Assembly: GCA_964444705.1 (NCBI GenBank)
Contig: CAYUHX010000001.1
Span: 17,055-81,054, forward strand
Reading direction: 5' to 3'
DNA: 64,000 nucleotides
Source of the DNA: an uncultured Gammaproteobacteria bacterium
GTDB lineage: Bacteria; Patescibacteriota; Patescibacteriia; Magasanikbacterales; GWA2-37-8
The notes below the pieces were generated by a model. The model did not search any database. It was not told where the DNA came from and worked only from the letters and a program-made list of their open reading frames with translations. How positions within the stretch are numbered: the stretch's first letter is position 1; every line of letters begins with the position of its first letter. Below, in pieces: positions 23,985 through 60,986 of the stretch. The position numbers and the translations under genes were made by a program.

Positions 23985-24057
23985 GCGCCTGTAGCTCAGG
24001 GGTTAGAGCGCCACCCTTATAAGGTGGATGTCGATGGTTCAATTCCATCCAGGCGCA
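23985..24057 (+). tRNA. tRNA-Ile with anticodon UAU (TAT)
   Basis: Manual cloverleaf fold: 7-bp acceptor GCGCCTG/CAGGCGC, D-stem GCTC/GAGC, anticodon stem CCACC/GGTGG with loop CTTATAA (U33, anticodon TAT, A37), T-stem GATGG/CCATC with loop TTCAATT, discriminator A73. No CCA encoded. Candidate promoter TTGAAT-17-TAGACT about 60 nt upstream. Confidence 0.85.
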
Positions 24058-24083
24058 CATTTATTTTCTAATCACAGATTAAT

Positions 24084-26627: not shown

Positions 26628-29360
26628 ATGAAAAAATCAATTTTAGTAATCCTTACTTTCTCTTTATTTTGCCAATTAGCACCCGTCGAAGCCTTTTCAT
26701 TAAGCAGTGCCGAATCCTTCGCAAATATTCGTTTGTCAAAACCACTCAACTCTCCCGACCTGCGCACTCCGCTCAAAACACCATTATTTTCTCCACAGTC
26801 AAACAGCACAAACCCCGCCGAACAAGAAAATGTTCCAAAAGATTCTTGGTATTACAGCAAGGAATACACGGCTCCCGATGAAAATTTTTTATTTGAAACT
26901 AATTTACGTATTGATGAACAAGCTACCCAACGCTTGCCCATTGAACAAGATTTAAAAGGAATGGATTATAATAATCAAGAAAATATCGGTGGATACGAAG
27001 CTGCTTTAGTGATGCGCCAGTCCGGCACCAACGATCGCTATCGGGCCATGTTTTCTTCCACTTGGAAAGAAATATTAATATGGTCGAGTCGCGGCGGTAT
27101 TTTGGCGGTGAAACCTTTTGCATTTGATCCGGGCGTGACGTATAAAGTTTCGTTTGCCAAACACGGCAACCGTTTGTTAGTAGCTGTCAATGACAAAACT
27201 ATTGTTTCGTTGATTGATCGTACCACTCCCATCAAAGTTGACCGTTACGGCTTGGCCACCAAAGAAGGCATCGTGTGGTTTTCTAGAATAAAATCCAAAA
27301 CGCTTACCGGCTCCATTTCTCGTTTGGATACTTCGGTGCATGTGGCTAATTTTTCTTTACGCACTTGGAAAGGTGTTACATGGGGATTTGATGGCGACGA
27401 ACCTATTTTTGCCTTACCGAATCGTACCGCTTTTGCTTCGGAAGTAAAATTGGTGCCAGGGTACGCGGCGCAAATGGCCCTGCAATGGTACATCCAAAAT
27501 TGGGTAGACGAAGCATTTCGTACGGATATTGTAACTAACATTGAAGAACATGAAAAAGGTACTAAATTAAGCTTTACTATTACGAGTAAAGATGAAACCA
27601 ATCGAACAGATTTAATCAACAAAACCAAAGTAACCGTGAGTTATGACGAAGCCAAAAATGTGTATGTGTATGATCATGTCAGTGAGCTCATTGTTCCTGC
27701 TGGATCAAATTTACGGATGAGCTATCCACTTGATATTGCGGATCCGGTATTTTTACAATCAGTTCCCTCCGGAAGTACTTACGGCCGACAATGGCCGGTA
27801 ACGCACCAATGGGGAGCATACCAACACCCTGATGGTAATTATTATAAACAGCCTTTTAATCACGCCGATTGGTATCCAGGCTACGGTACTCAGGAATTTT
27901 GGAATAAAGGCATGCACAAAATGAAAGCCGATGGCGGTTCGTGGGCTTTGGTGGGCGACAGGATCGCTAATCCAGTATTACAATGGAACGAATCACCGAC
28001 GCGCAATGAATTTAGCGCGCTTGTCTGCTGGTTCGCTTACGACCTGCATTTTAATTGGATGCCAGGAGATGGTAGCCCCGTTACCTTGCCAAGTGGTACA
28101 TATACCTTTAAATGGAGCGTATCTTCGCTTCCTGGAGATGAAGCCGATGCTCGCTTAAGCTCGGCGAAATATGCGGTGGAAGGCGACATGAGCTTAAAAT
28201 GGTTGCTTTATACTGGTGGCGTGGGTCATGTCGAAAAATTTGATAAAACCGCTTTACGAGCTTCACCGTTTGGAGAGTATATCTGGGGAGATAGCGCCTA
28301 TCAAGACACTGCTGTTGGCTATGATGATACTACCTCACTACGCCTGGAAGGTCCGGATTTTGTAAAAACCTCAGCGGGCGATAGCATGTTTACCGAGTCA
28401 TTTTTGCCGGACACTGACTATGAAATTTCTGCGTGGATAAAAACTGAAAATGTGCAGGGCAAGGGCCCCGGCATCATCTTTAGCGGGCAGCCCTATTATC
28501 CCGGTATCACCGGCACTACCGACTGGCAACAAATTGGCTTCGTGGCTCGCCCGCAAGAGCCGCTTTATTCGGTGCCGTTCTTTTTACACAATGCCGGTTC
28601 GGGCAAGGTATGGTTCGACAACTTCCAGATTCGCCCTATTACTGCCGTGAATCCAGTCGCGCTAAACTTAAACAATCGTCCTCGCCCTATTGCCAAAGGA
28701 ATTGCCATAGATCCAAACGCCTATTTGATTCTTGATCCAAAAAATGCGCTGACAGATGCGGCGCGCACCGTTCTGGATGGTTCAAATCGCCAAAATAACG
28801 GCGTGTTACAAAATGCGACAGTCGAAACAGTAGCAGAAAACAAGATATTCCGTTTCCGCGGCAACGACGCGCAAGTTTTGATGCGCGGGCATGAAAGCAC
28901 GGATTTTTCGGCTCCTGCCACCTTGGTCACCTGGATCAAACCGGGAACCGGTGTAAATGGCTGGAACGTGGTGGCGAGCGGTGGCATTGATCGGGCCGAT
29001 TATTGGCGTATTATTCTCAGCAAAGTAGATGATTATCGATTAGCCGTACACACGCCAGGAGGCACAATTGATGGTAGCGGTACGATTGTGCCAGAAGGCG
29101 TCTGGTCGCAATTGGCCTTGGTTGACGATGGCACTACCGCATCATTCTATTTCAATGATACGCTGGTTGGTACCACGCCTTCCAATGGGAATATTTTTGG
29201 CAAAGGCCCAACCGGGTATGTGCGATTAGGGGCCATGTCCTATGAAGGGCGGCCGACTTCAGGAGTTGAAGGTGATGTGAGCGCGCTCACTATTTTCACC
29301 AAAGCTTGGAGTGCGGAGGAAATAAAAGCGAGCTATCTAAAAGGACCGTTTGGATTATAG
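26628..29360 (+). CDS. large secreted protein (910 aa) with concanavalin-A-like/LamG-type and CBM-like beta-sandwich domains
   Basis: Signal peptide MKKSILVILTFSLFCQLAPVEAFS. C-terminal LamG-like pattern (TLVTWIKPG...WSQLALVDDGTTASFYFNDTLVG...GDVSALTIFTKAWSAEEI). Central CBM_4_9-like segment (DYEISAWIKTENVQGKG...VWFDNFQIRPI). Confidence 0.7.
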   Translation: MKKSILVILTFSLFCQLAPVEAFSLSSAESFANIRLSKPLNSPDLRTPLKTPLFSPQSNSTNPAEQENVPKDSWYYSKEYTAPDENFLFETNLRIDEQATQRLPIEQDLKGMDYNNQENIGGYEAALVMRQSGTNDRYRAMFSSTWKEILIWSSRGGILAVKPFAFDPGVTYKVSFAKHGNRLLVAVNDKTIVSLIDRTTPIKVDRYGLATKEGIVWFSRIKSKTLTGSISRLDTSVHVANFSLRTWKGVTWGFDGDEPIFALPNRTAFASEVKLVPGYAAQMALQWYIQNWVDEAFRTDIVTNIEEHEKGTKLSFTITSKDETNRTDLINKTKVTVSYDEAKNVYVYDHVSELIVPAGSNLRMSYPLDIADPVFLQSVPSGSTYGRQWPVTHQWGAYQHPDGNYYKQPFNHADWYPGYGTQEFWNKGMHKMKADGGSWALVGDRIANPVLQWNESPTRNEFSALVCWFAYDLHFNWMPGDGSPVTLPSGTYTFKWSVSSLPGDEADARLSSAKYAVEGDMSLKWLLYTGGVGHVEKFDKTALRASPFGEYIWGDSAYQDTAVGYDDTTSLRLEGPDFVKTSAGDSMFTESFLPDTDYEISAWIKTENVQGKGPGIIFSGQPYYPGITGTTDWQQIGFVARPQEPLYSVPFFLHNAGSGKVWFDNFQIRPITAVNPVALNLNNRPRPIAKGIAIDPNAYLILDPKNALTDAARTVLDGSNRQNNGVLQNATVETVAENKIFRFRGNDAQVLMRGHESTDFSAPATLVTWIKPGTGVNGWNVVASGGIDRADYWRIILSKVDDYRLAVHTPGGTIDGSGTIVPEGVWSQLALVDDGTTASFYFNDTLVGTTPSNGNIFGKGPTGYVRLGAMSYEGRPTSGVEGDVSALTIFTKAWSAEEIKASYLKGPFGL

Positions 29361-29435
29361 ATGCAACAATTTTTTAACGAATTAAAAACAGCGATAATTT
29401 TTCTATCGCTGTTTTTTAATTAATATTACTTTTTA

Positions 29436-29942
29436 TTATCCTTTGTTTAAACGCCTAGGAATCATAAAATTCTTTACATACTCATAACTTCGAGGATCAT
29501 TTTTTATTCTATTCATTTCCGCATAAATTTCTTGAGCCACTTGACGAGGACTCACTTTGCAATCATCACTACGATATAATTCCCAAGCTGACAAATCACC
29601 TTCAGAATGTTGGTTAAACCCCCAAAGTTTTTCTTTAGGTTCCTCAAGTCTGTTTCTTTCACGGAGGACTCTTTGAGCTGCTAAATCAAAAATGCAACGA
29701 GTTTCAGCGTCTTTGGTTTGAAGAGCTATCATATGAGATTTGTCAACTCTGGGATGCATTATTGTAAGATATCCTTTTTCAAGAGCTTGATACCAATTTT
29801 CATAACCTGTATCATCTTTAGCTCTCTCGACAATTTCTTCTGCCAAATCATAGTCTTTTTTTGTATCGCCGGGACGCAGTAAGTCTTGCATTTTCTTAGC
29901 TTCTGCTTCAGCGTCTTCTAAAGAATAACGTAATTCTCTCAT
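29436..29942 (-). CDS. hypothetical protein (168 aa)
   Basis: Open frame only. Confidence 0.45.
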   Translation of the reverse strand: MRELRYSLEDAEAEAKKMQDLLRPGDTKKDYDLAEEIVERAKDDTGYENWYQALEKGYLTIMHPRVDKSHMIALQTKDAETRCIFDLAAQRVLRERNRLEEPKEKLWGFNQHSEGDLSAWELYRSDDCKVSPRQVAQEIYAEMNRIKNDPRSYEYVKNFMIPRRLNKG

Positions 29943-29961
29943 ATTATTTAATAATAAGTAT

Positions 29962-31539
29962 TTACGGCGCCCCCTCGCTCCTTTTTACCGTCCCGCCCGC
30001 GACGAACGTCCCTTTTTCCAGGTCGCTAAATACCCGATTCATCGGGCCAAAATAAATGCCGTGCGGATAGGCAAGACCACTCGAGGCCTGACAGTAACGA
30101 ACTTTTTTTAGCGTCGCTTTATCAGCTGGCATTTTATTGGTCAGTGCACATTTTTGGGCTGCGGCTTTATCACGATAACCGCTTTGCACAATTTCGTATT
30201 TTACTTGCGCGCCGATTTTTTTAGCAACCTTAACATCCTCTTCGCCCACTTTTTGAATCTCTTTCCATTTTTCTTGGTAGGGCAAATAATCATCCTCAAT
30301 TACATTCAAAAAAATCTTTTTACCTTTGTTCATAGCAATACGCACCAAGCCAGGCGAATCAAGTGGAATGCTGGCAGTATCTTTAAATTGACACACGCGT
30401 GGCAAATACCCCCAACCGCACCAGCGACCAATAAAACCGGTTACGCCATTATTGCCGCTGGCTTCCTCAATCGCTAAATCATCAGCGCGCCACGGGTAGC
30501 TAAGCGGGCCGGCATTAGAAACAATGATGGAAACATCAGGATCAAGTACACCGTACATGAGCGAGCTATACGCGCCTTTGGAATGACCAGAGACAATCAA
30601 TTTTTTTTGATTAGAAATAGTAAAATTTCCTTCTTTTTGTAAGGCCAGAACCGCGTTGATGCCACGACGCGTACGGATTTGTTCCGCCAGCAATACCGAC
30701 ATATCAGGAAAATACTGGCGAATTTTATGCATGGCCACGGTATCGTATTCCAGTGACGTATCTTGTCCGCCCGGATATTCCCGCATCGTGCCATACCCCG
30801 GCATATCTGGCCCGGCCAGTACAATGTACCCGCGACGAGCGAATTCTACGCCCAGTGCATACGCCGGCGCAATCCCTTCGCCTTCGGTACAGGCGCCGAT
30901 TTGTTCGCGTGAAGCACACGCTGCCAGTGTCTGATGGCGGGCAATTACTAATTCGCGCGGCCCAGTATAATCACTGCGCGGCACCATTAAATAGCCATAA
31001 GATTTTTCACCAAGTAATCCATCAAATTCAAAACCATATACTTGAATATTTTCCTCAGCTGGTTTGGTTGGTTTCACAAAACCCAGGTCTTCCCACACTG
31101 GCTTGGCAAAAAACCCCCGATCAGTTTTAGTGATATGTGCTACCTTCATTTGATCCTCTGTTAATCCAGGATCCAATTTTAATTTCGGATTCAACGGCAC
31201 GCATGTATCCTGAAATTTCCCGCCCAGCATCCATTCTAAAGCTTTTCGCAATTTTTCCGGATTTTTTATTTCTTCTTCGGTAAGCGGTACCAACTCCTTT
31301 TTCCCTTCTTGGCTGGTTTTAAATTGCGGTGGCAGGCCTTTTTTCTTTTGTTCTTGTATTAATTCTTTGCCCCAAAACCGCACCTCTTCTTTAAGAGGTG
31401 TTTGAGGAACCTCCAAACAATTTTTTTTCTTCTCACTTTCTGCTTGAGCTGGTGATGAAATTGCCAAAATCCCCACCGCAGAAAAAATTAAAAAAATTGC
31501 ACTATTCACCAAAATAAGAGTATGTGTTTTTTTGTACAT
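29962..31539 (-). CDS. secreted alpha/beta-hydrolase-fold esterase/lipase-like protein
   Basis: N-terminal TM/signal LILVNSAIFLIFSAVGILAISSPAQA. Nucleophile elbow GHSKG (GxSxG) in VSGHSKGAYSSLMYGVLDP. Start chosen at MYKKTH so it does not overlap the uvrA stop. Confidence 0.65.
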   Translation of the reverse strand: MYKKTHTLILVNSAIFLIFSAVGILAISSPAQAESEKKKNCLEVPQTPLKEEVRFWGKELIQEQKKKGLPPQFKTSQEGKKELVPLTEEEIKNPEKLRKALEWMLGGKFQDTCVPLNPKLKLDPGLTEDQMKVAHITKTDRGFFAKPVWEDLGFVKPTKPAEENIQVYGFEFDGLLGEKSYGYLMVPRSDYTGPRELVIARHQTLAACASREQIGACTEGEGIAPAYALGVEFARRGYIVLAGPDMPGYGTMREYPGGQDTSLEYDTVAMHKIRQYFPDMSVLLAEQIRTRRGINAVLALQKEGNFTISNQKKLIVSGHSKGAYSSLMYGVLDPDVSIIVSNAGPLSYPWRADDLAIEEASGNNGVTGFIGRWCGWGYLPRVCQFKDTASIPLDSPGLVRIAMNKGKKIFLNVIEDDYLPYQEKWKEIQKVGEEDVKVAKKIGAQVKYEIVQSGYRDKAAAQKCALTNKMPADKATLKKVRYCQASSGLAYPHGIYFGPMNRVFSDLEKGTFVAGGTVKRSEGAP

Positions 31540-31552
31540 GTACCTATTTTTA

Positions 31553-34330
31553 CTATAAATACTTTGCGGTCCAACCTTTTTTGCGAGAGATAAGATCAGC
31601 CGGCGTACCAAAATCAACAATTTCACCACCACTCTCGCCTCCTTCAGGGCCAAGATCAATTACCCAATCACTGGAACGAATCATCTCCACATTATGCTCA
31701 ATCACAAGAACGCTATTACCTTTGTTCACCAAAGCATTAAGCACCTGGAGTAAGCGTTTAATATCTTCAAAGTGCAAACCTGTAGTAGGCTCATCCAGAA
31801 TATAAAGCGTTTTACCAGTAGAATGGCGCGCTAATTCTTGAGCAAGCTTGATACGCTGTGCCTCACCGCCTGAAAGGGTTGTAGCAGGTTGGCCAAGCTC
31901 AATATACCCCAAACCTACTTCACGGAGCACATTAAGCTTATCTGCAATCGCCGGAATATCACAAAAAAATTTAAACGCTTCTTCGACAGTCATCTTGAGC
32001 ACGTCGGCAATATGTTTGTTGTGATAATGCACTTCCAGAGCTTCTCGATTATACCGCCACCCACCACACTCATTACACTCCACATATACATCCGCCAAAA
32101 ATTGCATGGGAATACGAATATATCCATCACCACTACACGCTTCACATCGCCCACCACCCTTTACATTAAAACTAAATTTACCTGCATCATACGCACGCAT
32201 TCGTGCTTCTGGCAAAGACGCAAACAGATCTCGAATCAAATTAAAGATACCCGTATAAGTAGCCGGATTCGAACGTGGTGTGCGGCCAATCGGTGATTGA
32301 TCGATGGTAATCACCTTATCAATATGCGACAACCCCTGAATACTTTTGTGCGCCCCTGGCTCTTCTTTGGCGCGATAAAAATACTTAGCTAAGGCTTTAC
32401 TTAAAATATCGATAATTAATGTCGATTTACCCGATCCCGACACACCCGTAACACACACTAATCGACCAAGCGGAATATCGACATCAATATTTTTAAGGTT
32501 ATGAGCCGAAGCACCAGTAATCACAATTGACTTCCCCGTTCCTTTACGCACGACACGTTTTATAACCCCAATATTAGCTCGTCCAAAAAGATAGTCTGCC
32601 GTTAAAGAATCAGTTGATTTTTTAAACTCTTTAAGAGTGCCCTGTGCAATCACTTGTCCGCCATATACCCCGGCCCCTGGCCCCACATCAACCAAATAAT
32701 CGGCGGCGAGCATCATGGTGGCATCGTGCTCAACCACGATAACGGTATTACCCAAATCACGAAGATATTTAAGCGTTTCAATTAATTTTTGATTATCACG
32801 TGGGTGTAAACCAACCGATGGTTCGTCGAGCACATACACAATACCACTCAATCCCGAAGAGAGTTGCGTTGCCAAACGCACGCGAGTCACCTCACCGCCC
32901 GACAATGTATTCATGGCGCGATCAAGATTTAAATACCCTAAGCCTACACGCTCTAAATTTTCTAACCGCGGCACGATTTCACGAATAATCAAATCTGCCA
33001 CTTTTGAACTTTTTATTTCGCCTGTCAACACTCGTTTGACATCTTCCACATTCATCGCAGAAAAAGCCGAGATAGTATAATCTCCTAAACGTACGGCCAA
33101 CGACTCAGCCTTAAGACGTTTTCCTTGGCACACAGAACAAATTTTTTCTCGCATGTACTGCTCAATTTCTTTGCGCACATACTCAGAATTGGTTTCAAGG
33201 TGTTTGCTCATGAGATCGGGGATGACACCTACAAAACCAGTTTTCTTACCTTCAACGTCATACCATTCTTCGCCACTGCCATACAAAATGACATTCAAAA
33301 TTTTTGGTGATAAATCAACCACTGGAGTGTTGAGCGAAAAATTAAATCGATCGGCCACCGCTGCAAGAAGTTTGGTGTAAAAACTATGATTGCCGGTAAT
33401 ACGAGTCCAAGGCTGGATCGCACCTTCGGCTAAAGTAAGCCGTGCGTTTGGAATAACCAAACTCGCGTCAACCTCCATCGTCACCCCAAGACCAGTGCAA
33501 CGTGTGCACGCGCCATAGGGACTATTAAAACTAAAACTGCGCATATCAACCGGCGCCATGGTGCGACCACATTTTAAACAAATTCCCATGGTTGAACACA
33601 ATTTGTTTTTTTCTTCAGCCGAGAGCATCACCACCCCATTCGCAAGGTCAAGCGCACTTTCAATAAGCTTAGTAGGGTCTTGTTTTTTAATATCAGTAAT
33701 AGTGCCAATGAGTATCTCTACCGTGTAGAGGACATCTTTCTCAAACTGAAAATCAAGCAAATCGTTAATTTTAAAACGATTACCATTGAGACGCAACCAT
33801 TCAAACCCCGATTTTTCAATTCGCTCAAGTAATGATTTTTTTTCTATTTTTCCCTCGCGAATAAGAGGTGCATACACAGAAACTTCACCACTTTTACGGG
33901 CAAAACGACGTAATTCTTCCACAATTTCTCCACTCGTTTTCACCTCAACCGCCAAATGACATTCGGGGCAATACTGCTCACCCACGCGGGCAAAAAGCAA
34001 ACGCAAAAGATCATAAATCTCGGTTACGGTGCCCACGGTTGAACGTGGATTTTGCGTTGACATCTTTTGATCAATGGCGATAGTTGGCGATAAACCTTCA
34101 ATCGAATCGGCATCTGGTTTGTCTTGGGTTTCCATGAATTGTCGCGCATACGACGACATTGACTCCGCATAACGCCGCTGCCCTTCGGCATAAATAGTAT
34201 CAAACGCAAGACTCGATTTTCCTGATCCAGATAAACCAGTGATCACCACCAATTTATGCTTAGGAATTTCAATATCTACATTCTTTAAATTATGAACCCT
34301 GGCGCCACGAATTTTAATAGTGTCTGACAT
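31553..34330 (-). CDS. uvrA: excinuclease ABC subunit A (paralog 1, 925 aa)
   Basis: N-terminus [50 protein letters not shown]. Two ABC modules (second Walker [11 protein letters not shown]). Zn-finger cysteines. Confidence 0.92.
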   Translation of the reverse strand: MSDTIKIRGARVHNLKNVDIEIPKHKLVVITGLSGSGKSSLAFDTIYAEGQRRYAESMSSYARQFMETQDKPDADSIEGLSPTIAIDQKMSTQNPRSTVGTVTEIYDLLRLLFARVGEQYCPECHLAVEVKTSGEIVEELRRFARKSGEVSVYAPLIREGKIEKKSLLERIEKSGFEWLRLNGNRFKINDLLDFQFEKDVLYTVEILIGTITDIKKQDPTKLIESALDLANGVVMLSAEEKNKLCSTMGICLKCGRTMAPVDMRSFSFNSPYGACTRCTGLGVTMEVDASLVIPNARLTLAEGAIQPWTRITGNHSFYTKLLAAVADRFNFSLNTPVVDLSPKILNVILYGSGEEWYDVEGKKTGFVGVIPDLMSKHLETNSEYVRKEIEQYMREKICSVCQGKRLKAESLAVRLGDYTISAFSAMNVEDVKRVLTGEIKSSKVADLIIREIVPRLENLERVGLGYLNLDRAMNTLSGGEVTRVRLATQLSSGLSGIVYVLDEPSVGLHPRDNQKLIETLKYLRDLGNTVIVVEHDATMMLAADYLVDVGPGAGVYGGQVIAQGTLKEFKKSTDSLTADYLFGRANIGVIKRVVRKGTGKSIVITGASAHNLKNIDVDIPLGRLVCVTGVSGSGKSTLIIDILSKALAKYFYRAKEEPGAHKSIQGLSHIDKVITIDQSPIGRTPRSNPATYTGIFNLIRDLFASLPEARMRAYDAGKFSFNVKGGGRCEACSGDGYIRIPMQFLADVYVECNECGGWRYNREALEVHYHNKHIADVLKMTVEEAFKFFCDIPAIADKLNVLREVGLGYIELGQPATTLSGGEAQRIKLAQELARHSTGKTLYILDEPTTGLHFEDIKRLLQVLNALVNKGNSVLVIEHNVEMIRSSDWVIDLGPEGGESGGEIVDFGTPADLISRKKGWTAKYL

Positions 34331-34352: not shown

Positions 34353-35798
34353 CTATTTGGAAATATTAAAACGTTTAAAATAAACTTGACGATGCTCTTC
34401 TCCACCAACAGTGGGAATATCTTTTATAGACGCAGCCTCGATATTGAGCGGAATTCCTTTTTTTAACTCTTCGACACTAAAAAAATAAGATTGATTAATA
34501 TCATATTTGTGCGTATCAAAAAATCCCCGATTTAAAGCCGTTCCATCACCCAAATCAACTCCATCTTTGCCAATATAATGAACTTGCACCGCACCCGCAT
34601 AAGTCTCATTCATTCCAAGTTTGAGCACAAAACCTCTAAATTTTTCTTTTCCACCGATACAATGTATGGTTGGTAGATTTAAATCTGCATCTGAGGCTTG
34701 CACCGTAAAAACCTGTGTTTTACCATCTGCAAGTGTCTGTAATTTTGCACTGGAATTTTCAACCATTGATACACCACTTTCACCTTCAACACACACCGCA
34801 TACAACCCCTCCACCGAACTTACTGACGGATTATTCCACTCTCGAGTTAAAAAATCAGGAAAAAAATCCTTAACAAAAGAATTGTGTGTAATAGTTCCAA
34901 TAATATTACCTTTCTTGCACAAATACTTCTTTTCATTAGGATCGGAAACGCAGATTGGTTTCTTGCCCCCTTCATCATCACACCAATTTCCCCAACAGGT
35001 GGCACCACCGCCCTGTTTCACAAAAAAACGCTTACCGCAATAAAAATTACGAGCATTGCTTTTTTCTGGAGGAACTTTGGTTTCATCTTTGAAGGTAATG
35101 TCGAACTTTGTATCTTTACCTGCCGGTTTGACCGGATTCTGTTGGTCGTCAACTCCCGAAGCAAGAGCAAAGCTTTTATCATTTTTTATTTCATCCCCCG
35201 CATCAGCACAAAATTTTGGCAACATTTTTATAGACCTCACCACATACACCGACGGCAAACGCAACTGCACGAGCGCAGGGTTGAGGGTGTTCAAAATAAA
35301 ATATGACAAAAAAACAATAAAAAGTCCTGTCACTGCACCAACAATTTTCTTTTTAGCCCCAGAAATAACCTCAGTATTACCACCCGAAGTTGTCCATTGA
35401 ATTCCCGCTAGCATGATAATGATGGTGGCCAAAATTGGCGCCACACCAATTGCATATTTATATCCAAGCTGAATGAATTCACCAATATTTTGAAATTTAT
35501 TTTTTCCAAAAAAAGTTATCGCCGTTTTACTTTGCCCGGCCGGCAAACATTTACCCCATTCTTTACCCACGCACGGCTCTTCGCCCTGAATCCAGCCATC
35601 TTTTGACTCTGCCTCATTAACAAGAGGATCTTGTGCTCGACGATATTCAGCACAATCCTTTTGTTTCCAACAAAGCGGATTAAATTCAGGAATAACTGTT
35701 TCGTTTGCTGCAACACAGACCGACCACGACCCAACCAAAGCCACCATCACACACACGCCGAATAAAAATTGTTTCCAAAAATTAAATGTTGACTTCAT
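34353..35798 (-). CDS. Cys-rich polytopic envelope protein with a TrbC/VirB2-pilin-like two-helix hairpin (hypothetical)
   Basis: N-terminal TM. Two Cys-containing extracytoplasmic domains (about 13 Cys). Internal hairpin GVAPILATIIIMLAGIQWTTSGGNTEVISGAKKKIVGAVTGLFIVFLSYFIL resembles the conjugative-pilin hydrophobic hairpin. Start at the second Met to avoid overlap with dsbA. Confidence 0.6.
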   Translation of the reverse strand: MKSTFNFWKQFLFGVCVMVALVGSWSVCVAANETVIPEFNPLCWKQKDCAEYRRAQDPLVNEAESKDGWIQGEEPCVGKEWGKCLPAGQSKTAITFFGKNKFQNIGEFIQLGYKYAIGVAPILATIIIMLAGIQWTTSGGNTEVISGAKKKIVGAVTGLFIVFLSYFILNTLNPALVQLRLPSVYVVRSIKMLPKFCADAGDEIKNDKSFALASGVDDQQNPVKPAGKDTKFDITFKDETKVPPEKSNARNFYCGKRFFVKQGGGATCWGNWCDDEGGKKPICVSDPNEKKYLCKKGNIIGTITHNSFVKDFFPDFLTREWNNPSVSSVEGLYAVCVEGESGVSMVENSSAKLQTLADGKTQVFTVQASDADLNLPTIHCIGGKEKFRGFVLKLGMNETYAGAVQVHYIGKDGVDLGDGTALNRGFFDTHKYDINQSYFFSVEELKKGIPLNIEAASIKDIPTVGGEEHRQVYFKRFNISK

Positions 35799-35799
35799 A

Positions 35800-36567
35800 T
35801 TATTTTGAAGAAAGAAATCGATCCCATAATTCAAACGGAATCACACCTTCAACCCTCTCGCCATTAATAAAAAAAGTAGGCGTCCCCCGAACACCAAAAC
35901 GCAAGCCATCGGCATAATCACGATTAATTGCCACCGCTGTAGCTGGCGTAGAAAGACACGCGTTCAATTTGTTTTTATCGAGGCGTGTATTTTTTACTAA
36001 TTCATTAATTTCTGCCTCACCCCAACTACTAGTAAAAAAAGTATCTTGAGAGGCGAAGAAAAAATCATACACGGGCCAAAAAAGATTTTGAGCTTTAGCA
36101 CATTGCCCAACTTCGGCCAACTGCGTTGCTCCTGGGTGCAATGATTCAACCGGAAAATTTCTGAACACAAAACGTACTTTCCCGGGGTATTTTTGCAACA
36201 CCTGGGCCACAATTGGGACTGCTAATTTACAATTGGGACATTTAAAATCTATAAACTCCACCACCGTAATCGGTGCGTCAGCCTGGCCAAAAACTAAAAA
36301 ATCCCCTTGTTCCAAATCTTTCCTTTCAGCTGCCGAAAGTACTCCATTTTGTGATACCGGTCCAGCGGCGGCACTAAACCGACCGCCCGATCCTTCCAAA
36401 GTGATTAAGTCACCCTGTTTTATCTGCCGCAGATACGACAAAGTAATATAACCAAACACAGTCAGCATGAAAATGATAGCTCCGCCTACCACAAGAGAGG
36501 TAATACCCCACCATTTTTTATACCATGGCTTTAAAATCACGGCGACATCCATACCAATTACCCTCAC
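35800..36567 (-). CDS. membrane-anchored DsbA-like thiol:disulfide oxidoreductase
   Basis: Thioredoxin fold with CPNC active site (FIDFKCPNCKLAVP) and cis-Pro region GTPTFFING. N-terminal TM anchor. Confidence 0.8.
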   Translation of the reverse strand: MRVIGMDVAVILKPWYKKWWGITSLVVGGAIIFMLTVFGYITLSYLRQIKQGDLITLEGSGGRFSAAAGPVSQNGVLSAAERKDLEQGDFLVFGQADAPITVVEFIDFKCPNCKLAVPIVAQVLQKYPGKVRFVFRNFPVESLHPGATQLAEVGQCAKAQNLFWPVYDFFFASQDTFFTSSWGEAEINELVKNTRLDKNKLNACLSTPATAVAINRDYADGLRFGVRGTPTFFINGERVEGVIPFELWDRFLSSK

Positions 36568-42591: not shown

Positions 42592-43845
42592 CTAACGCTT
42601 TATTTTTCTCTTTGAACGATTAAAGGTAATTGCAAAACGATGTGCTTCATCACGCACACGAATGAGCGCCTCGCGATGGTGCGACACCCACGCCACGAGC
42701 GCCGGCTCCACACTCCCCAAAATAATATCGTTACGCTTTCGCTCTTTACCTTTAGCCAAACCTACTATGGGAATATCGACGTTTTTTGAACTAAGCACTT
42801 CTTTGGCACGATTCACCTGCGGTCGACCACCATCAATTAAAAAAAGAGTTGGCAACGGCCAATCAGCGTGTGCTAAACGACGATTCAACACCTCAGCTAA
42901 ACAATCTACATCACTCTGCCCCACTACTGTTTTAATGGTAAATTTTCGATAGGCTGCTTTAATTGGGCCATGCTCATCAGCAACCACCAAACTACCTACC
43001 TTGTCAGTGTCGCCCAAATTGGAAATATCATATCCTTCAATGCGATAATGATCTGCTTCATCGTTTGTCCCCGCGTGCTCTCTAAAAAATTCTTGATTTA
43101 AGAGAGCGACATCTTGAATACGATACAATGATTTTGATTGATCGCGCAGGCGCGCTGCTTCTTCAAAACGAAATTCTTTGGCTGCCAGCTTCATTTTATT
43201 TTCCCACTCTCGCACCAACTTCTTTTTTTCACCCTGTAAAAACAGCACCAGCGGCCGAATTACTTTTAACGCATAGTCGCGAGGACTAATTTCACCCGTA
43301 CAGACGCCCAGACACTCTTCCATCTGTCGATAGAGACAGGGCTTTAACGAAAGAGGTCGGCAACTCGAAAAACGAAATAATCGGCGAAGTAACTTCATGG
43401 TGGCCTTGGTATTGAGGCCAGGATACGGCCCGAACACATACTTGAAACCAGGCGGCACCTTTCCTTCTTCATGTGAAAGAAGACGCAGCTCGCGCTCACG
43501 AATAGTTTTCACCTGCGGATACAGCTCTTTCGTAATAATAATATAATTCCAACTTTTATCATCTTTACCAAGTACGTTGTATTTGGGTTGATTTTTTTTG
43601 ATGTACAACGCCTCTAAAATAATCGCCTCAAGCACTGATTCGGTTTCTTTCCACTCAATACGTGCCACCTCATGAATCATTTCTTCAATCGGCCGCGGCG
43701 TGCGTAGCCCACGAAAATAGCTTTGCACCCGGCTTTTAAGCGACGTTGCTTTACCCACATACACCAGCTCACCATCTTCAGAATAATACAAATAAATACC
43801 TGGGGCATCGGGTAATTTTTTAAAAACAGAATCAAATTTGTGCAT
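42592..43845 (-). CDS. uvrC: excinuclease ABC subunit C, compact form lacking the C-terminal (HhH)2 domain (417 aa)
   Basis: GIY-YIG N-terminus LPDAPGIYLYYSEDGELVYVGKATSLKSRVQSYF. UVR domain FRFEEAARLRDQ. RNase-H-like endonuclease domain RIEGYDISNLGDTDKVGSLVV...LIDGGRPQ. The frame ends before any helix-hairpin-helix pair. Confidence 0.85.
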   Translation of the reverse strand: MHKFDSVFKKLPDAPGIYLYYSEDGELVYVGKATSLKSRVQSYFRGLRTPRPIEEMIHEVARIEWKETESVLEAIILEALYIKKNQPKYNVLGKDDKSWNYIIITKELYPQVKTIRERELRLLSHEEGKVPPGFKYVFGPYPGLNTKATMKLLRRLFRFSSCRPLSLKPCLYRQMEECLGVCTGEISPRDYALKVIRPLVLFLQGEKKKLVREWENKMKLAAKEFRFEEAARLRDQSKSLYRIQDVALLNQEFFREHAGTNDEADHYRIEGYDISNLGDTDKVGSLVVADEHGPIKAAYRKFTIKTVVGQSDVDCLAEVLNRRLAHADWPLPTLFLIDGGRPQVNRAKEVLSSKNVDIPIVGLAKGKERKRNDIILGSVEPALVAWVSHHREALIRVRDEAHRFAITFNRSKRKIKR

Positions 43846-44082
43846 ACAATTTATGAGGTGACGGCGTCTTATTTATTTAATATTACGCCAAAAAAAAGCC
43901 CTTCGCAACCACTCCACGCATTTTTTCACTTTTAAAATTATCATAACTTCTATTTTTATATACAGATATCACCATGCTATCCTTGACAAGATTGAAAATA
44001 CATAGTATACTCACCCGTCAAGCGTAATTGCTTGATTGACTATTTTAAAGCTCGTTTACAACGGCCATTTAGATTACTACTC

Positions 44083-44211
44083 CTGATATCACCGTCGATA
44101 ATCAGAAATCAAAGAGACAAGAAACCGACATCCTGCTAGAATTTTCTACCTACTTACCTGTTTCGGATCTCTCCACACATGTTCATCGGGTTATCGACCG
44201 TGATATCAGAG
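44083..44211. repeat. 19-nt inverted repeat pair (CTGATATCACCGTCGATAA / TTATCGACCGTGATATCAG, 1 mismatch) bracketing about 90 nt of noncoding DNA
   Basis: Seen directly. A third half-site copy GATATCACC lies at about 43965. No ORF in the region. Confidence 0.4.
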
Positions 44212-44270
44212 TGTTTCTAAAAAAGCCTCTACGGAGTTTGGATTAAACAAATACTAAACCACTGGCTAAT

Positions 44271-44375
44271 CCCGACGATGGTAATCTGCGCTTGAATTTG
44301 AAAGGAACAAGGATCAAGGAACAAAGAGCAATTTGTCCTTTTTCCTTCACTCGAACTCACATTACCATCGTCGGG
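44271..44375 (+). promoter_or_regulatory. 15-bp perfect inverted repeat (CCCGACGATGGTAAT ... ATTACCATCGTCGGG) enclosing a 75-nt purine-rich spacer, at the low-GC/high-GC junction just upstream of the high-GC lipoprotein gene
   Basis: Seen directly. The right arm ends 40 nt before the ATG, and a strong SD GAGGAGG follows. Confidence 0.4.
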
Positions 44376-44415
44376 CACTTGCGCCCGTCGATCCCTACGT
44401 CCTGAGGAGGACCGC

Positions 44416-45105: not shown

Positions 45106-45275
45106 CGGCGCTGCCGCCCGACCCGCGGCGGCGCACACCGGCCATCAAATCGCTTGATCCACCGCTCCGTTCCGCAGCCCCCGCTCGCCTAAACCTGCTC
45201 GCCCACTTCGGTGCGAACAGCGGTGCGAGGGGGGCCTGCATCTGTTGAATAAAAGAACTGTCTTTTGTTCATAGA

Positions 45276-48038: not shown

Positions 48039-48202
48039 ACTATTTTAGTAATTAATGATTAAATTTATAGTACTATAATACCACAAAAACTGCATTTTGT
48101 CAAGCTAAAATTTAGCTAAATTTAGATAAAAATAGCGTACTGTTCGCAAATAAACACCCAAACCAGTGGACACTCCGCCCCAAAATGATAGACTACTTTT
48201 CT

Positions 48203-50281
48203 ATGCCTTTTAAACTTGTTTCTTCCTACCAACCATCGGGTGACCAACCAAAAGCCATTGATCAGCTTGTCTCTGGCTTAAAACAAGGGTTTAAAAAACA
48301 AACCCTGCTTGGTGTTACTGGCTCTGGCAAAACGTTTACCATGGCAAACGTGATTACCAAGCTGCAACGACCAACTTTAGTGATCGCTCACAATAAAACC
48401 TTGGCTGCCCAACTGTGCAACGAATTTCGTGAATTTTTTCCCGAAAATGCAGTGGAATATTTTGTCAGTTACTACGATTATTATCAGCCTGAGGCCTACA
48501 TGCCGCACAGCGATACCTATATTGAAAAAGAGGCGCAAATCAACCAAGAAATTGATCGCTTGCGCCACGCCTGCACCCAAGCCCTACTCACCCGTGAAGA
48601 TGTGATTATTGTGGCGTCGGTATCAGCCATTTACGGTTTGGGTTCACCAAAAGAATACGAACAAATCGTCCTCCACGTGCGCGTGGGAGAGCTCCTTAAT
48701 CGGCGCGACATGCTCGAACACCTCATCAGCATGCAATTTGAACGCACCAATCTTGAGTTAACCCGCGGCTCATTTCGCCTCACCGGCCAAGTGATTGAGG
48801 TAATGCCAGTCAACGAAGAAATGATTTATCGCCTCGAAATAGGCAATACTATTAATAACATTGAAATCATTGACCCAGTGACTCGTAAATTACGCCACAC
48901 CGTCAACGACGCCTGGTTCTTTCCTGCGAAACATTACGTCGTGGGCGAACAAGCAAAAGCGCACGCCATTGAAACAATTCAAACTGAATTGACGGAACAG
49001 CTGGCTGCCTTTGAACGACAGGGAAAAGTACTTGAGCATGAACGGTTAAAACGCCGAGTGAGTTATGATCTTGAACTTATTCGCAATCTTGGTTATTGCA
49101 ATGGCATTGAAAATTATTCCCGCCATTTTGATGGCCGCGCCGAGGGCGAGCCGCCGTTTAGTCTGCTTGACTATTTTACCCACGGTGCACGTACATTTCT
49201 CACCATTATCGATGAATCACACGTCACGTTACCCCAGCTTCGTGCGATGTATGCCGGCGACAGAGCCCGCAAAGAAACATTGGTTGAACACGGGTTTCGT
49301 TTACCAAGCGCCAAAGACAATCGTCCGCTCACCTACCCTGAGTTTGAAGCACGCACCGAAGGAGTGATATATGTTTCCGCCACACCAACTGAATATGAAA
49401 TAGCAGAAAGTGCCCAGGTGGTAGAACAGGTGGTGCGCCCCACTGGTCTTATTGACCCGGAAGTGCTCATCTGCCCCATCACTGGCCTCGGCAATCTTTC
49501 ACAAATTGAAGATCTTTTGGTGCGCATTGAGGCACGGATCAAAAAAAATGAACGTGTGCTCGTAACCACACTCACCAAACGTATGGCCGAAGACCTCACC
49601 GATTATTTACATGAGAAAAAAATTAAAGTGAGCTACCTTCACAGCGATATCAAAACTCTTGAGCGGGTGGAAACAATTATGAATTTACGCTTGGGAAAAA
49701 TTGATGTGCTGGTAGGTGTCAACCTGCTCCGCGAAGGCCTTGATATGCCTGAGGTGTCCCTCGTTGCCATTCTTGATGCGGATAAAGAAGGTTTTCTGCG
49801 CAGTGAAACCAGCTTAATTCAAACCATAGGCCGCGCGGCCCGCAATGTAAATGGGCAGGTTGTGTTGTATGCAGATCACTCCACTGGCTCGATTGAGCGA
49901 GCAGTGGCTGAAACGAATCGTCGCCGTGCCATTCAACTCGCCTACAATACGGAACATGGCATCACTCCGAAAACAATTGAAAAAACAATTCGAAATATTT
50001 TGGAAGAGTTTGGTATTTCTGAAAAGAATAAGGAGCATGGAACAAGGAACAAAAAAAACCACACACTCAGCACTACCGATCTCGATTTACTCGGCGATGC
50101 CAGACCACTTAAAGACATTATCAAAGACAAAGAGGCGCAGATGAAAGAAGCGGCGCGCACATTAGAATTTGAGCTGGCTGCAATTTTGCGTGATGAGGTG
50201 CGTGAACTCACTGCTCGACTTAAAACTGGCGAGAAAACGACTCATCAAAAAAAATCTACTCCCCGACGAAAAAAAATATGA
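48203..50281 (+). CDS. uvrB: excinuclease ABC subunit B
   Basis: N-terminus MPFKLVSSYQPSGDQPKAIDQLVSGL. Walker A TLLGVTGSGKTFT. Helicase motifs. C-terminal UVR domain LEFELAAILRDEVRELTARL. Confidence 0.92.
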   Translation: MPFKLVSSYQPSGDQPKAIDQLVSGLKQGFKKQTLLGVTGSGKTFTMANVITKLQRPTLVIAHNKTLAAQLCNEFREFFPENAVEYFVSYYDYYQPEAYMPHSDTYIEKEAQINQEIDRLRHACTQALLTREDVIIVASVSAIYGLGSPKEYEQIVLHVRVGELLNRRDMLEHLISMQFERTNLELTRGSFRLTGQVIEVMPVNEEMIYRLEIGNTINNIEIIDPVTRKLRHTVNDAWFFPAKHYVVGEQAKAHAIETIQTELTEQLAAFERQGKVLEHERLKRRVSYDLELIRNLGYCNGIENYSRHFDGRAEGEPPFSLLDYFTHGARTFLTIIDESHVTLPQLRAMYAGDRARKETLVEHGFRLPSAKDNRPLTYPEFEARTEGVIYVSATPTEYEIAESAQVVEQVVRPTGLIDPEVLICPITGLGNLSQIEDLLVRIEARIKKNERVLVTTLTKRMAEDLTDYLHEKKIKVSYLHSDIKTLERVETIMNLRLGKIDVLVGVNLLREGLDMPEVSLVAILDADKEGFLRSETSLIQTIGRAARNVNGQVVLYADHSTGSIERAVAETNRRRAIQLAYNTEHGITPKTIEKTIRNILEEFGISEKNKEHGTRNKKNHTLSTTDLDLLGDARPLKDIIKDKEAQMKEAARTLEFELAAILRDEVRELTARLKTGEKTTHQKKSTPRRKKI

Positions 50282-54491: not shown

Positions 54492-56240
54492 TCACTGCCG
54501 ACACCAGGCACAACCCCACCAGGAGGAGGAAGAACCAGTGGTGGGGCCAGGGCTTCCAGAACCTCCCGAGCGCGGCGCGAGCTTGCTGACCAGCGCCAGC
54601 CCCATGGGGGACAGGCACAGCTCAGCCAGGGTGACGACGAAGTAGCTGCTGATGAGCCAGAGCGGGCTCACTCGGCCAGAGTTGCCACCGGCGAGCGAAC
54701 CCACCACCATGATCAGGTACGAGATGGCCGTAAGCACCATCCCAATGCCGATCTTGGCTGCGGTGGACGGCTGACGGCCGCGCTTCTCGAGGAAGACTCC
54801 GAAGAACCAGTTGAGAACTGGCGTCAGAGTCACGACGAAAAACGGGTTGACGCTATTGTAAACAATAGCGCCGGGCTTCCAGCCGAGGATGCTCTCGCGG
54901 GTGTGGTCGTCGGCCCAGAAGACCAAAACGCTGCCGTTCTGGTGAAACGCCGCCCAGAAAAAAATGACAATCACACAAATAACACTGATCGCGAGGATCC
55001 GTAGACCCTCGACGAGCGGCGGCTCGCGCGCGTCTTCGTATTCCTTGGGCAAGGGGACCCCAAGGACGGCCGCGACACTCGATCTCTGATCCGCCAGCTT
55101 GAACCAGCGGTAGCACGCGGCGGCGATGACGAAGCCGACCATCATGCCGACACCGGCCGCCGAGAATGCCGCCGCCCACCCGTAGTGCGCCACCATGTAG
55201 TCGGCAACAAAGGGGCTAAAAAATGCCCCAATGTTGACGCCCATGTAGAAGACGCTGAAGGCAGCGTCCCGCCGCGAATCGCCGGCGGGATACATGTTCC
55301 CCAGCATCGTCCCGATGCTGGGCTTGAACATGCCGTTCCCCAAGACGATGAGAATGATCGCCGTCCAGAGAAACTTGGGAGGAGCGCCGAGCGCGAAGTA
55401 GCCCACGGCCATGAGGGCCGCGCCGAAGAGCACCGCCTTCCGATAGCCCAGCCACCGGTCGGCGATGATGCCCCCGAAGAACGGGGCGAAATAGGTCAAC
55501 GCGATGAAGCTCCCATACGTACTCGAGGCTTCGGCCGCCGAGTACCCCAAGTGCTTCTTGAGGTACAAGGTGAAAATGGCCAGCATCAGGTAGTAGCCGA
55601 AGCGCTCCCACATCTCGACCATAAAAAACGCGTAGAGCTGACGCGGGTGCCGGGGACCAGAGGAGCGGCGGGTCGCGAGCTTGCTGAGGAGGCGAGCGAT
55701 CGGACGGAATGGCCAGTTCCGCCTGGTCACGGCCCAGTCATCGGCTAAGAGCCAACTCCAATACCGGAGCTCCGCCATGAGCTCGCCGATCCAGGGGTGC
55801 GCCTTGAGGAAGCGCGCCCGGCGGTAAGCCGCGATGCGAGCCTGCTGCGCCCTCCTCTCGGCGCGCTCCGCCTGCCGAATGGCGTTGATGCGGGCCGCGC
55901 CATCACGGCGGATCTGCTGGGCACGCTCGAACGCAGCGAAACGCGCGAGAAGCCGCTGCCACGGGGGCGACACGCCCGAGTGGACCAGCGCGTACGCCGC
56001 CCGCCCGGCGGTGAAAAACCAGAAGATGGCGGGCGCGACGAAGTTGAAAAACTCACGGGCCGGCGGGGCAAGCCGCTGCCGAACGGCGTCCACGGTCGCG
56101 AGCACGCGCCGTTTGACGCTGGCGAACGTCGCGGCCACCACGGTGAAAAATGCGATGATCTTGAGCACCACCCGCTCCTCGATGAGAAGCTGCGGAGCCG
56201 TCATAGTTGCCTTGGCCTGGATCGGACGCTTTCTCTTCAT
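54492..56240 (-). CDS. POT/PTR2-family proton-dependent oligopeptide transporter in a high-GC (about 65%) island, with an about 190-aa N-terminal extension and a probable 3' frameshift (continuation likely in frame 54271-54618)
   Basis: PTR2 signature FFMVEMWERFGYYLMLAIFTLYL, GGIIADRWLGYRKAVLFGAALMAVGYFALG and LAELCLSPMGLALVSKLAP. After KLAP the frame degenerates (SGGSGSPGPTTGSSSSWW) while the overlapping -frame reads a plausible TM (HHWFFLLLVGLCLVSAVILW). Confidence 0.7.
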   Translation of the reverse strand: MKRKRPIQAKATMTAPQLLIEERVVLKIIAFFTVVAATFASVKRRVLATVDAVRQRLAPPAREFFNFVAPAIFWFFTAGRAAYALVHSGVSPPWQRLLARFAAFERAQQIRRDGAARINAIRQAERAERRAQQARIAAYRRARFLKAHPWIGELMAELRYWSWLLADDWAVTRRNWPFRPIARLLSKLATRRSSGPRHPRQLYAFFMVEMWERFGYYLMLAIFTLYLKKHLGYSAAEASSTYGSFIALTYFAPFFGGIIADRWLGYRKAVLFGAALMAVGYFALGAPPKFLWTAIILIVLGNGMFKPSIGTMLGNMYPAGDSRRDAAFSVFYMGVNIGAFFSPFVADYMVAHYGWAAAFSAAGVGMMVGFVIAAACYRWFKLADQRSSVAAVLGVPLPKEYEDAREPPLVEGLRILAISVICVIVIFFWAAFHQNGSVLVFWADDHTRESILGWKPGAIVYNSVNPFFVVTLTPVLNWFFGVFLEKRGRQPSTAAKIGIGMVLTAISYLIMVVGSLAGGNSGRVSPLWLISSYFVVTLAELCLSPMGLALVSKLAPRSGGSGSPGPTTGSSSSWWGCAWCRQ

Positions 56241-57562: not shown

Positions 57563-57731
57563 ATAACTATGTAAGAAATAAAAACATGTTTATGCTAACA
57601 TAAATAAACGCAAAGTCAATTAAGGTTTGACAAAAAAAATACACCGAGTTAAGCTAATTTTACTTCTTCTCTACGAAAGATGAGGCCCCGCCGTGGGCTT
57701 TTTTAGATTCGTACGACCTACTTATATTTTT

Positions 57732-60494: not shown

Positions 60495-60915
60495 CGCTCA
60501 TAACAGGTAATCGCCCCGACGTAAAGTCGGGGAGGAAAGTCCGAACACCCTACCCTCCGCCTCGTGCGGAGATTGAAAAAGGTAGTGGGTAACACCCACC
60601 CTTTGTTTCGTGAGGAGCAAGGCGGGACAGTGGCACAGAGACAATACTAACCAGTGCTTGGCACTGGCGAAAGGTGAAAAGTGTGAGGAGGTAAAAAATC
60701 TTCGGATTTCTTGCCACCCCACTCCTCGGCTGGCAACAGCCGAGTGTGCTAAACCCTACCTGGTGCAAGAGCAGCCCCAAATTCCCTTTATGGAATTTGT
60801 CGGAAAAGTTCGCTCGCACAGATTCCGTCAGCAATGCCGGAGCCAGAGAAATGATTACCACTCCCCCATCTAAAAAATGGTGGAGCACAAAATTCGGCTT
60901 ATCGTTATGAGCATC
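60495..60915 (+). ncRNA. rnpB: RNase P RNA (bacterial type A-like)
   Basis: Conserved P4 5' strand GGAGGAAAGTCCGAACAC and 3' strand ACAAAATTCGGCTTATCG, with compensatory CCGAA/TTCGG changes relative to the common CCGGG/CCCGG. P1 closing helix GCTCATAAC...GTTATGAGC. GGTAACACCC (P10-P12 region) present. Only short spurious ORFs overlap. Confidence 0.85.
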
Positions 60916-60986
60916 CTAAAACCTCTCTTCCTCAGAGAGGTTTTAGTTTGACGATGAACCGCTTTAGGCATAAAATAGCTCGTACT

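Follow-up and report, generated by a model that had tools for sequence, protein, structure and literature searches.

What does a pilin-type membrane hairpin do in the middle of a large, cysteine-rich envelope protein? This question is raised by a locus in the 64,000-nucleotide stretch analysed here (the window; positions 17,055 to 81,054 of contig CAYUHX010000001.1, assembly GCA_964444705.1), which is deposited under the name of an uncultured Gammaproteobacteria bacterium and placed by GTDB in the Patescibacteriota, order Magasanikbacterales. Two neighbouring genes on the minus strand are concerned. One encodes the protein with the hairpin (hereafter the hairpin protein), and the other encodes a membrane-anchored DsbA-like thiol-disulfide oxidoreductase (hereafter the partner). 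Patescibacteria are obligate episymbionts; a type IV secretion system (T4SS) and VirB2-like pilins are essential in the single genetically tractable species, while the role of the T4SS and the way in which the host is recognized are unexplained (PMC10633639, PMC12102498, PMC12857230). From the comparison of homologous loci we regard the two genes as an envelope module of Magasanikbacteria-type Patescibacteria. With modest confidence, we read the hairpin protein as a modular surface adhesin or host-recognition protein that is anchored by a VirB2-type hairpin, is folded with the help of a BdbD/MdbA-like partner and may dock to a T4SS encoded elsewhere.

The gene for the hairpin protein (34353..35798, minus strand) encodes 481 aa when read from the ATG at 35798, with the stop codon at 34353..34355. 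The open reading frame (ORF) extends to 35834 and would give 493 aa from a TTG codon there, but this start was dropped in favour of the ATG, from which the homologues align. A first-pass annotation of this DNA had counted 480 aa, one residue fewer. It is a genuine gene and not a chance ORF, because there are 55 homologues, 314 representative clusters and 43 species-level loci. The 55 homologues were found with the full-length query (E 1e-128 to 1e-33) and belong to Magasanikbacteria or Patescibacteria where a taxon is named; one is annotated as "pilin" and the remainder as "hypothetical". The 314 clusters were obtained in an exhaustive search of representative sequences at E≤1e-30; at E≤1e-3 this search gave 10,822. 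Among the top 150 representatives the length was 331-618 aa, except for two proteins of 294-307 aa and one 91-aa fragment. The 43 loci, from Magasanikbacteria genomes, came from scanning one genome per GTDB species.

Hydropathy and sequence indicate a signal peptide at residues 1-31 (35706..35798), with lysines K2 and K9 in the n-region, a hydrophobic core and a predicted V-A-A/N cleavage site near 31/32; the two alanines before the mature N-terminus are part of the family consensus. The hydropathy scan gave three hydrophobic stretches, residues 4-33, 111-137 and 150-179. An AlphaFold2 model (mean predicted local distance difference test score, pLDDT, 87.6; predicted template modelling score 0.71) placed a helix at residues 6-27, coinciding with the signal peptide, and two further helices at 105-137 and 142-172. 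The latter two are joined by the four-residue turn SGGN, and just past this turn a KKK motif (residues 147-149) opens the second helix. These helices form the VirB2-like hairpin region (residues 105-182, 35253..35486), which ends with the conserved exit motif NPALVQLRLP (35253..35282). The hairpin sequence quoted in the first-pass annotation lies at residues 126-169. Before the hairpin is a small alpha/beta ectodomain (residues 32-104, 35487..35705) with cysteines 43, 49, 76 and 84. After it come a membrane-proximal Cys-rich region (residues 183-300, 34899..35252; C197, C254, C268, C273, C283 and C294), where pLDDT is mostly above 85, and a beta-rich, highly variable distal C-terminal domain (residues 301-481, 34356..34898; C336 and C380). 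This arrangement agrees with the N-terminal anchor and the extracytoplasmic domain of about 80 aa with four Cys that had been described earlier. The C-terminal part is indeed about 300 aa long and carries eight cysteines instead of the roughly nine first counted, and once the signal peptide is cleaved the protein would be bitopic, through a single hairpin, and not polytopic.

The hairpin is the only part of the window protein that matched a Pfam family, and the N-domain belongs to none. It aligned to T4SS_pilin (PF18895; residues 106-172) with 26.1 bits and E 9e-6, covering profile positions 6-71 of 71, and the gathering threshold of this family is 26.6 bits. All 56 aligned family members matched PF18895 at E≤0.01 (best 5.2e-10), and the positional orthologues in loci L046 and L047 scored 43.2 and 50.9 bits; a precomputed PF18895 match was present in about half of the homologues. 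The TrbC/VirB2 family (PF04956; residues 115-171) was reached with 18.4 bits and E 0.0025, under its 27.9-bit gathering threshold, and 18 of the 56 members matched it at E≤0.01 (best 5.6e-6). The pilin-like model NF045849, from a Mycoplasma integrative and conjugative element (ICE), was matched by 24 of 56 at the same E-value limit (best 7.7e-6), with all scores far under its 40-bit cut-off and only 12.5 bits for the window protein. The family-level signal is unambiguous, and on this ground we consider the hairpin homologous to the Patescibacterial VirB2-like pilins described in PMC12102498. The pilin-like hairpin proposed in the first-pass annotation is thus borne out by the profile search suggested with it.

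Homology of the hairpin does not make the whole protein an ordinary T4SS pilin. The anatomy of PF18895 pilins (signal peptide, two hydrophobic helices, short turn, basic residues) is all there. Those pilins are small and consist essentially of the hairpin, whereas here 73 aa precede and 300 aa follow it, and the gene lies neither in a T4SS cluster nor in a pilin array. Because the profile is matched at the family level and borderline in this protein, and the anatomy agrees while size and genomic context do not, we place the hairpin protein in the PF18895 superfamily as a modular form of enlarged size. The type IV pilus (T4P) class of pilins was ruled out by the Sec-type signal peptide, the mid-protein two-helix hairpin and the lack of a class III site; no T4P pilin Pfam family matched the hairpin protein.

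The closest comparison is with the VirB2-like pilins of the same phylum (PMC12102498), including the essential pilin array of Ca. Southlakia epibionticum (PMC10633639), which share the signal peptide, the two-helix hairpin and the same hidden Markov model (HMM). The surveyed pilins are small, often stand in tandem arrays of 2-11 genes and have about 25% mutual identity (PMC12102498). The hairpin protein, in contrast, has 481 aa, is single-copy, is Cys-rich on both sides of a hairpin that is 60% conserved, and is locked to a DsbA-like gene and uvrA. With the VirB2/TrbC/TraA pilins (PF04956) it has in common the hairpin of two hydrophobic helices, the short basic turn, the termini predicted outside and a weak but repeated HMM similarity. 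It differs from them in scoring below threshold, in having no T4SS operon, in a mature size 5-6 times larger, in its monoderm host and in showing no sign of cyclisation or C-terminal processing. The Mbov_0395 family protein of the Mycoplasma ICE (NF045849) is likewise of the hairpin type and comes from a conjugation system of wall-less/monoderm bacteria; it is about 80 aa long and ICE-borne, and the hairpin protein falls far below its 40-bit cut-off. The principle of a conserved pilin module joined to a surface adhesion module is known from modular type IV pilins such as PilB of Streptococcus sanguinis (PMC8179133). These belong to a non-homologous class, with a class III signal peptide, a single N-terminal helix and T4P assembly, so the likeness is an analogy only.

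Where do the two Cys-rich parts lie? The signal peptide and the basic residues past the turn suggest, by the positive-inside rule, that the N-domain and the C-terminal part are both extracytoplasmic. The cysteines back this topology independently by their conservation and by their even parity, the latter being that of disulfide-bonded extracellular domains. All 12 cysteines of the mature protein (four before and eight after the hairpin) are invariant or at least 90% conserved among 56 sequences; C76 and C84 are invariant, and C43 and C49 are at least 90% conserved. Nearly all members carry four Cys in the N-domain. The C-terminal count ranges from 6 to 32 among the loci and is even in 44 of 45. 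Together the two parts probably hold six disulfides. The outside location claimed in the first-pass annotation is therefore supported by the signal peptide, the KKK motif, the 12 conserved cysteines and their parity, and the predicted topology does not put the Cys-rich domains in the cytoplasm. An idea that an odd, unpaired cysteine goes together with a monothiol partner was rejected, as the count was even in 44 of 45 loci whatever the partner type.

The partner gene (35800..36567, minus strand) lies immediately upstream and encodes a DsbA/BdbD/MdbA-like oxidoreductase of 255 aa. It was correctly recognized at first reading as an adjacent, same-strand, membrane-anchored CPNC protein of the DsbA type. 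Its single N-terminal hydrophobic segment, with KK ahead of it, forms a transmembrane anchor (residues 19-46), and in the orientation presumed for it the catalytic part would be extracytoplasmic. The active site CPNC is at residues 110-113 (36229..36240), the cis-Pro loop GTPTF at residues 228-232 (35872..35886), and further cysteines are at 156 and 204. It matched Thioredoxin_4 with 96.7 bits (2e-27; cut-off 23.2) and DSBA with 57.4 bits (2e-15; cut-off 25.6), and the closest solved relatives are BdbD (3eu3, 2e-11), then the DsbA entries 4pwp (4e-10) and 4pwo. The stop codon of the partner (35802..35800) is separated by one base from the ATG of the hairpin gene, giving the junction TAA-T-ATG; across the loci, the first in-frame ATG follows the DsbA-like stop at a median distance of 9 nt. 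The hairpin gene is followed on the same strand by uvrA (31553..34330, minus strand) after 22 nt. Because of the 1-base and 22-nt gaps and the common strand, the DsbA-like, hairpin and uvrA genes probably form one transcription unit, and the first two are probably translationally coupled.

The active sites of 44 orthologous partners were of three kinds: CxxC in 23, CxxT in 10 and CxxS in 11. The first cysteine was kept in 44/44 and the cis-Pro loop in 42/44. As the Ser forms are scattered over several sequence backgrounds, the resolving cysteine seems to have been lost more than once. Thioredoxin-fold proteins with CxxS or CxxT do not cycle through an intramolecular disulfide. For single-Cys variants of protein disulfide isomerase and DsbA, the formation of mixed disulfides and the reshuffling of substrate disulfides are established. 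Because 21 of the 44 partners are monothiol (CxxT/S), the conserved function is less likely classical DsbA-type oxidation than the exchange or isomerisation of disulfides in a demanding substrate, and such a function would need neither DsbB nor DsbD. The dithiol (CPNC) partner of the window may also oxidise. No DsbB, BdbC or VKOR Pfam family was found among the window ORFs of at least 150 aa. From the operon structure and the Cys content, we infer that the hairpin protein is the substrate of the partner. Thus, of the oxidative folding partnership put forward earlier, the adjacency stands in all scorable loci, whereas classical oxidation does not fit the 21 partners without a resolving cysteine.

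B. subtilis BdbD is needed for the ComGC pseudopilin, and the actinobacterial MdbA is needed for pilus assembly. The partner resembles both in its membrane anchor, its CxxC, which is predicted to be extracytoplasmic, and its cis-Pro loop, and in being an oxidoreductase that would serve a disulfide-containing, pilin-type substrate. It differs from them in standing in an operon with one specific candidate substrate, in having no BdbC, DsbB or VKOR in the window and in the CxxT/S sites of 21 of 44 orthologues.

The gene order is conserved throughout the group. Wherever upstream DNA was available, which was so in 44 scored loci and in 41 of the 43 species loci, the gene directly before the hairpin gene was DsbA-like and on the same strand; uvrA was downstream in all 43 species loci (46 loci scored). 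Loci retrieved by exact protein look-up, including those with Hint-type C-termini, showed the same DsbA-like/hairpin/uvrA order. This triad is kept across at least four upstream contexts (SecG, L31/PrfA, S2/EF-Ts and other). The wider synteny is also high, with SBP5-SecG upstream in 30 loci and L19-Gmk-Rlu downstream in 35-37 (L19 in 37 of about 41-45). A functional link to uvrA is unsupported beyond this regional synteny, and none is claimed. No relatives of the hairpin protein were found by tblastn in plasmid and phage collections. In L016 (5613-7256 and 7260-8885) a tandem duplicate of the hairpin gene stands between the DsbA-like gene and uvrA, which is the sole array-like case seen. Many of these loci lie in metagenome-assembled genomes with other names: L005-L011, L017, L021, L023, L031, L034, L036, L039, L043, L044, L046 and L047 are titled "uncultured Gammaproteobacteria bacterium", and L019, with a Patescibacteria-type locus, is titled "Candidatus Udaeobacter"; these are probably mislabelled.

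Conservation is very uneven along the protein. When the loci were compared with the proteins of the window, the median identity was 66% in UvrA and 60% in the hairpin. The N-domain (44%) and the DsbA-like partner (41%) were intermediate, and the values were lowest in the membrane-proximal Cys region (30%) and the distal C-terminal domain (29%). The hairpin is the most conserved part of its protein, with 60-61% identity and invariant G132, G140, G158, L169, P174 and P182. Its conservation, close to that of UvrA, goes beyond what a passive anchor would need, and the hairpin probably interacts specifically with copies of itself, with lipid or with some conserved machine. The distal domain had 22-29% identity and was detectable at 50% coverage or more in 16 of 46 loci. 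Among the positional orthologues that have diverged most, the post-hairpin part is swapped for something else: other Cys-rich repeats in L046 and L047, longer Cys-rich ends in L040, L042 and L044, and Hint-bearing ends in P0053 and P0054. In four of these proteins (L042, L044, L046 and L047) there are 28-32 Cys after the hairpin, in EGF/Dickkopf-like repeats.

Other ends were found as well. Two proteins in the slot between the DsbA-like gene and uvrA, P0054 (L048:10001-11947) and P0053 (L049:10001-12109), have Hint, pretoxin-HINT or intein-like ends. These matches are weak (E 1e-6 to 4e-3), and they hint that in some species the C-terminal end is processed autoproteolytically or released. In L014 (20263-21312, minus strand) a second hairpin protein with an NPxLV exit motif is fused to Amidase_2 (E 3e-19), and by its domains it is a pilin-hairpin-anchored peptidoglycan hydrolase with an N-acetylmuramoyl-L-alanine amidase domain. 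In L046:3458-4648 and L045:9947-11569 the C-terminal 60-80 residues are Gly/Ala-rich, glycine-zipper-like and hydrophobic. The picture that emerges from these comparisons is a slowly evolving hairpin with the exit motif NPxLVxLRLP, which may serve as a carrier for fast-evolving or exchangeable extracellular modules.

How could such a protein work? It would be exported by Sec and lose its signal peptide, after which the VirB2-type hairpin would seat it in the cytoplasmic membrane, with the short turn and the KKK motif toward the cytoplasm. The four-Cys N-domain and the 300-aa C-terminal part with eight Cys would then be outside the cell. There the co-transcribed, membrane-anchored BdbD/MdbA-like enzyme would form or reshuffle disulfides as the chain emerges. 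A variable distal domain would thus be carried on a conserved base, made up of the hairpin and the membrane-proximal core, as is typical of surface adhesins and host-recognition proteins. The hairpin is a likely docking element, either for self-association or for a T4SS or pilus encoded elsewhere, in which case the protein would act as a minor or tip "modular pilin" and not as bulk pilin. The argument for adhesion or host recognition comes from the conserved core with a variable head, and it assumes an episymbiotic lifestyle as in all cultivated Patescibacteria.

These parts do not deserve equal trust. We are quite confident of the structural part, that is, a pilin-homologous hairpin, Cys-rich domains outside and a dedicated thiol-disulfide partner. 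An adhesin or host-recognition role is tentative, somewhat short of an even chance, and a physical association with a T4SS pilus is possible though doubtful. Several results weigh against the whole. The window protein itself stays 0.5 bit under the PF18895 gathering score. No T4SS gene was found in the 64-kb window, neither for a VirB4/VirD4-type ATPase nor for a VirB6-like polytopic protein, and the absence of such ATPases nearby had already been stated in the first-pass annotation. Likewise, precomputed Pfam matches showed no T4SS gene (virB4, trsD or virB3) and no pilin array within 10 kb on either side in L001-L004, L048 and L049. The ectodomains had no fold match in PDB or BFVD, the two libraries searched with Foldseek, and no adhesin-type domain was identified in the hairpin protein; profile search against PDB sequences gave chance-level matches only (E 0.5-1). 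The loss of the resolving cysteine in 21/44 partners is at odds with a simple oxidase. Because regional synteny is generally high, the DsbA adjacency is only moderately above baseline. Finally, incorporation into a pilus is speculative, since a 33-kDa domain per subunit is hard to fit with VirB2-type helical packing.

The distance from T4SS genes must be seen in the light of what is reported for the phylum. About 40% of the surveyed VirB2-like genes are not near virB4 (PMC12102498), so proximity is typical and not obligatory for PF18895 pilins, and the hairpin gene resembles that portion of the survey. Two Magasanikbacteria genomes have VirB4, TrsD and a type IV coupling protein, one of them also VirB3, and their VirB2-like matches, one to three genes per genome, all lie away from virB4 (PMC12102498 Tables S1/S3). 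None of the family accessions was found among those entries of the supplementary VirB2 table of that paper that were compared, and the survey reported no PrgB-type adhesins in the phylum. A T4SS for docking of the hairpin is plausibly encoded elsewhere in the genome. With a family-specific hairpin HMM, no second hairpin ORF was found in the 64-kb window.

The most serious competitor is a T4SS-independent envelope protein, in which a pilin-type hairpin has been co-opted as a mere anchor for surface housekeeping, such as wall, S-layer or uptake functions. We think this unlikely, though worth keeping in mind. It would agree well with a single-copy gene that occupies a fixed chromosomal slot among uvrA, rplS, gmk and secG in all 43 species, without T4SS genes found nearby and without relatives in plasmid and phage collections, and the peptidoglycan amidase on the L014 hairpin suggests a generic anchor. 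A mere anchor, however, would hardly be better conserved than every other part of its protein, as this hairpin is with its 60% identity, invariant Gly and Pro residues and conserved turn, and a highly variable or swapped distal domain is unusual for housekeeping. The same conservation would fit subunit-subunit packing and could be taken to mean a major T4SS pilin, that is, a giant VirB2 whose polymer would make up the pilus shaft, with the additional domains exposed on its outer face. The membership of the hairpin in pilin families and the few VirB2-like genes, away from virB4, in the two Magasanikbacteria genomes (PMC12102498 Table S3) would be explained too. This is very unlikely all the same. 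Known VirB2-type pilins have about 70-100 aa and the mature hairpin protein about 450, each subunit in published structures appears to offer too little surface for a head of 33 kDa together with an N-domain of 8 kDa, and the gene is neither in a pilin array nor beside virB3 or virB4.

The exchangeable ends raise the question whether the protein is the precursor of a released effector or toxin, retained by the hairpin until its variable C-terminal part is cleaved off or delivered to a host cell. P0053 and P0054 end in Hint-type domains, L045 and L046 have glycine-zipper-like tails, and the species have exchanged C-terminal parts in the manner of polymorphic toxins. The window protein shows no Hint, toxin or protease-site signature, there is no immunity-like small gene after it as uvrA begins 22 nt downstream, and the Hint matches are weak. 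Such a precursor is scarcely probable; the role is possible for the Hint-bearing orthologues and has no support in the window protein. A further thought, that the hairpin protein is a DsbB/VKOR analogue which re-oxidises the DsbA-like protein through extracytoplasmic Cys pairs, is nearly excluded. It would account for the strict adjacency, for a membrane protein with conserved Cys pairs and a membrane core, and for the lack of DsbB or VKOR in the window. Yet the hairpin protein has no CxxC, no cofactor- or quinone-binding signature and only two transmembrane helices after cleavage; its C-terminal Cys vary from 6 to 32 in a highly variable domain, and half of the partners are monothiol (CxxT/S) and would not be re-oxidised to an intramolecular disulfide. 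The modular, hairpin-anchored adhesin or host-recognition protein is the reading that we retain.

The remaining window is core chromosome, with gyrB, nusG, rpsB, tsf, prfA, prmC, uvrABC, ftsW and RNase P RNA. The last is of bacterial class A (60495..60917, plus strand; 155.8 bits). Within 30 kb there are two UvrA-type genes, the canonical one (31553..34330, minus strand) and a second copy (57693..60407, plus strand), together with uvrB (48185..50281, plus strand) and uvrC (42592..43845, minus strand). Between uvrA and gmk/rluD, at 26628..31659, are three genes not found at that position in L001-L004, encoding a 910-aa LamG-domain protein, a 168-aa protein and a 565-aa secreted protein with eight Cys and no Pfam match. 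By this comparison the region is a lineage-specific insertion of surface proteins. Another gene (4729..11565, minus strand) encodes a 2278-aa surface protein with CarboxypepD_reg, Big_5 and a C-terminal PG_binding_1 domain, and similar giants are nearby in L002 and L049.

The GC content at 54001-56000 is 0.616 versus about 0.44 elsewhere. This coincides with an ORF for a POT/PTR2-MFS peptide transporter (54492..56240, minus strand), and the GC-rich island may be horizontally acquired. GC is also elevated (0.529) at 44001-46000, where the ORFs have no Pfam match. The sole tRNA in the window, which also gave an Rfam tRNA match, is tRNA-Ile with anticodon TAT (23985..24058, plus strand). This anticodon is uncommon in bacteria, in which AUA is usually read by a lysidine-modified CAT tRNA.

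No paper was found on the extended hairpin forms, on their DsbA-like partner or on the DsbA-like/hairpin/uvrA slot. If the hairpin protein is only a membrane-anchored surface protein, it still represents an uncharacterised family, with two ectodomains that have neither a Pfam model nor a structural match in two libraries. The change from CxxC to CxxT/S in the partner bears on the question of how extracytoplasmic disulfides are handled without quinones, DsbB or DsbD. For one large order of this very poorly annotated phylum, the hairpin protein also offers a candidate, open to testing, for the adhesin or host-specificity element that is so far missing. A bolder extension, which we hold to be improbable as matters stand, is that these are the first "modular T4SS pilins". 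The hairpin would enter a T4SS pilus or platform and present, where the cell meets its host, interchangeable heads that are locked by disulfides (adhesins, amidases, Hint-releasable modules), serviced by a dedicated DsbA-like enzyme that was repeatedly turned into a monothiol (CxxT/S) isomerase without need of DsbB or DsbD. If this is true, modular T4SS pilins would be a concrete host-recognition component for the essential and functionally unexplained T4SS of these episymbionts.

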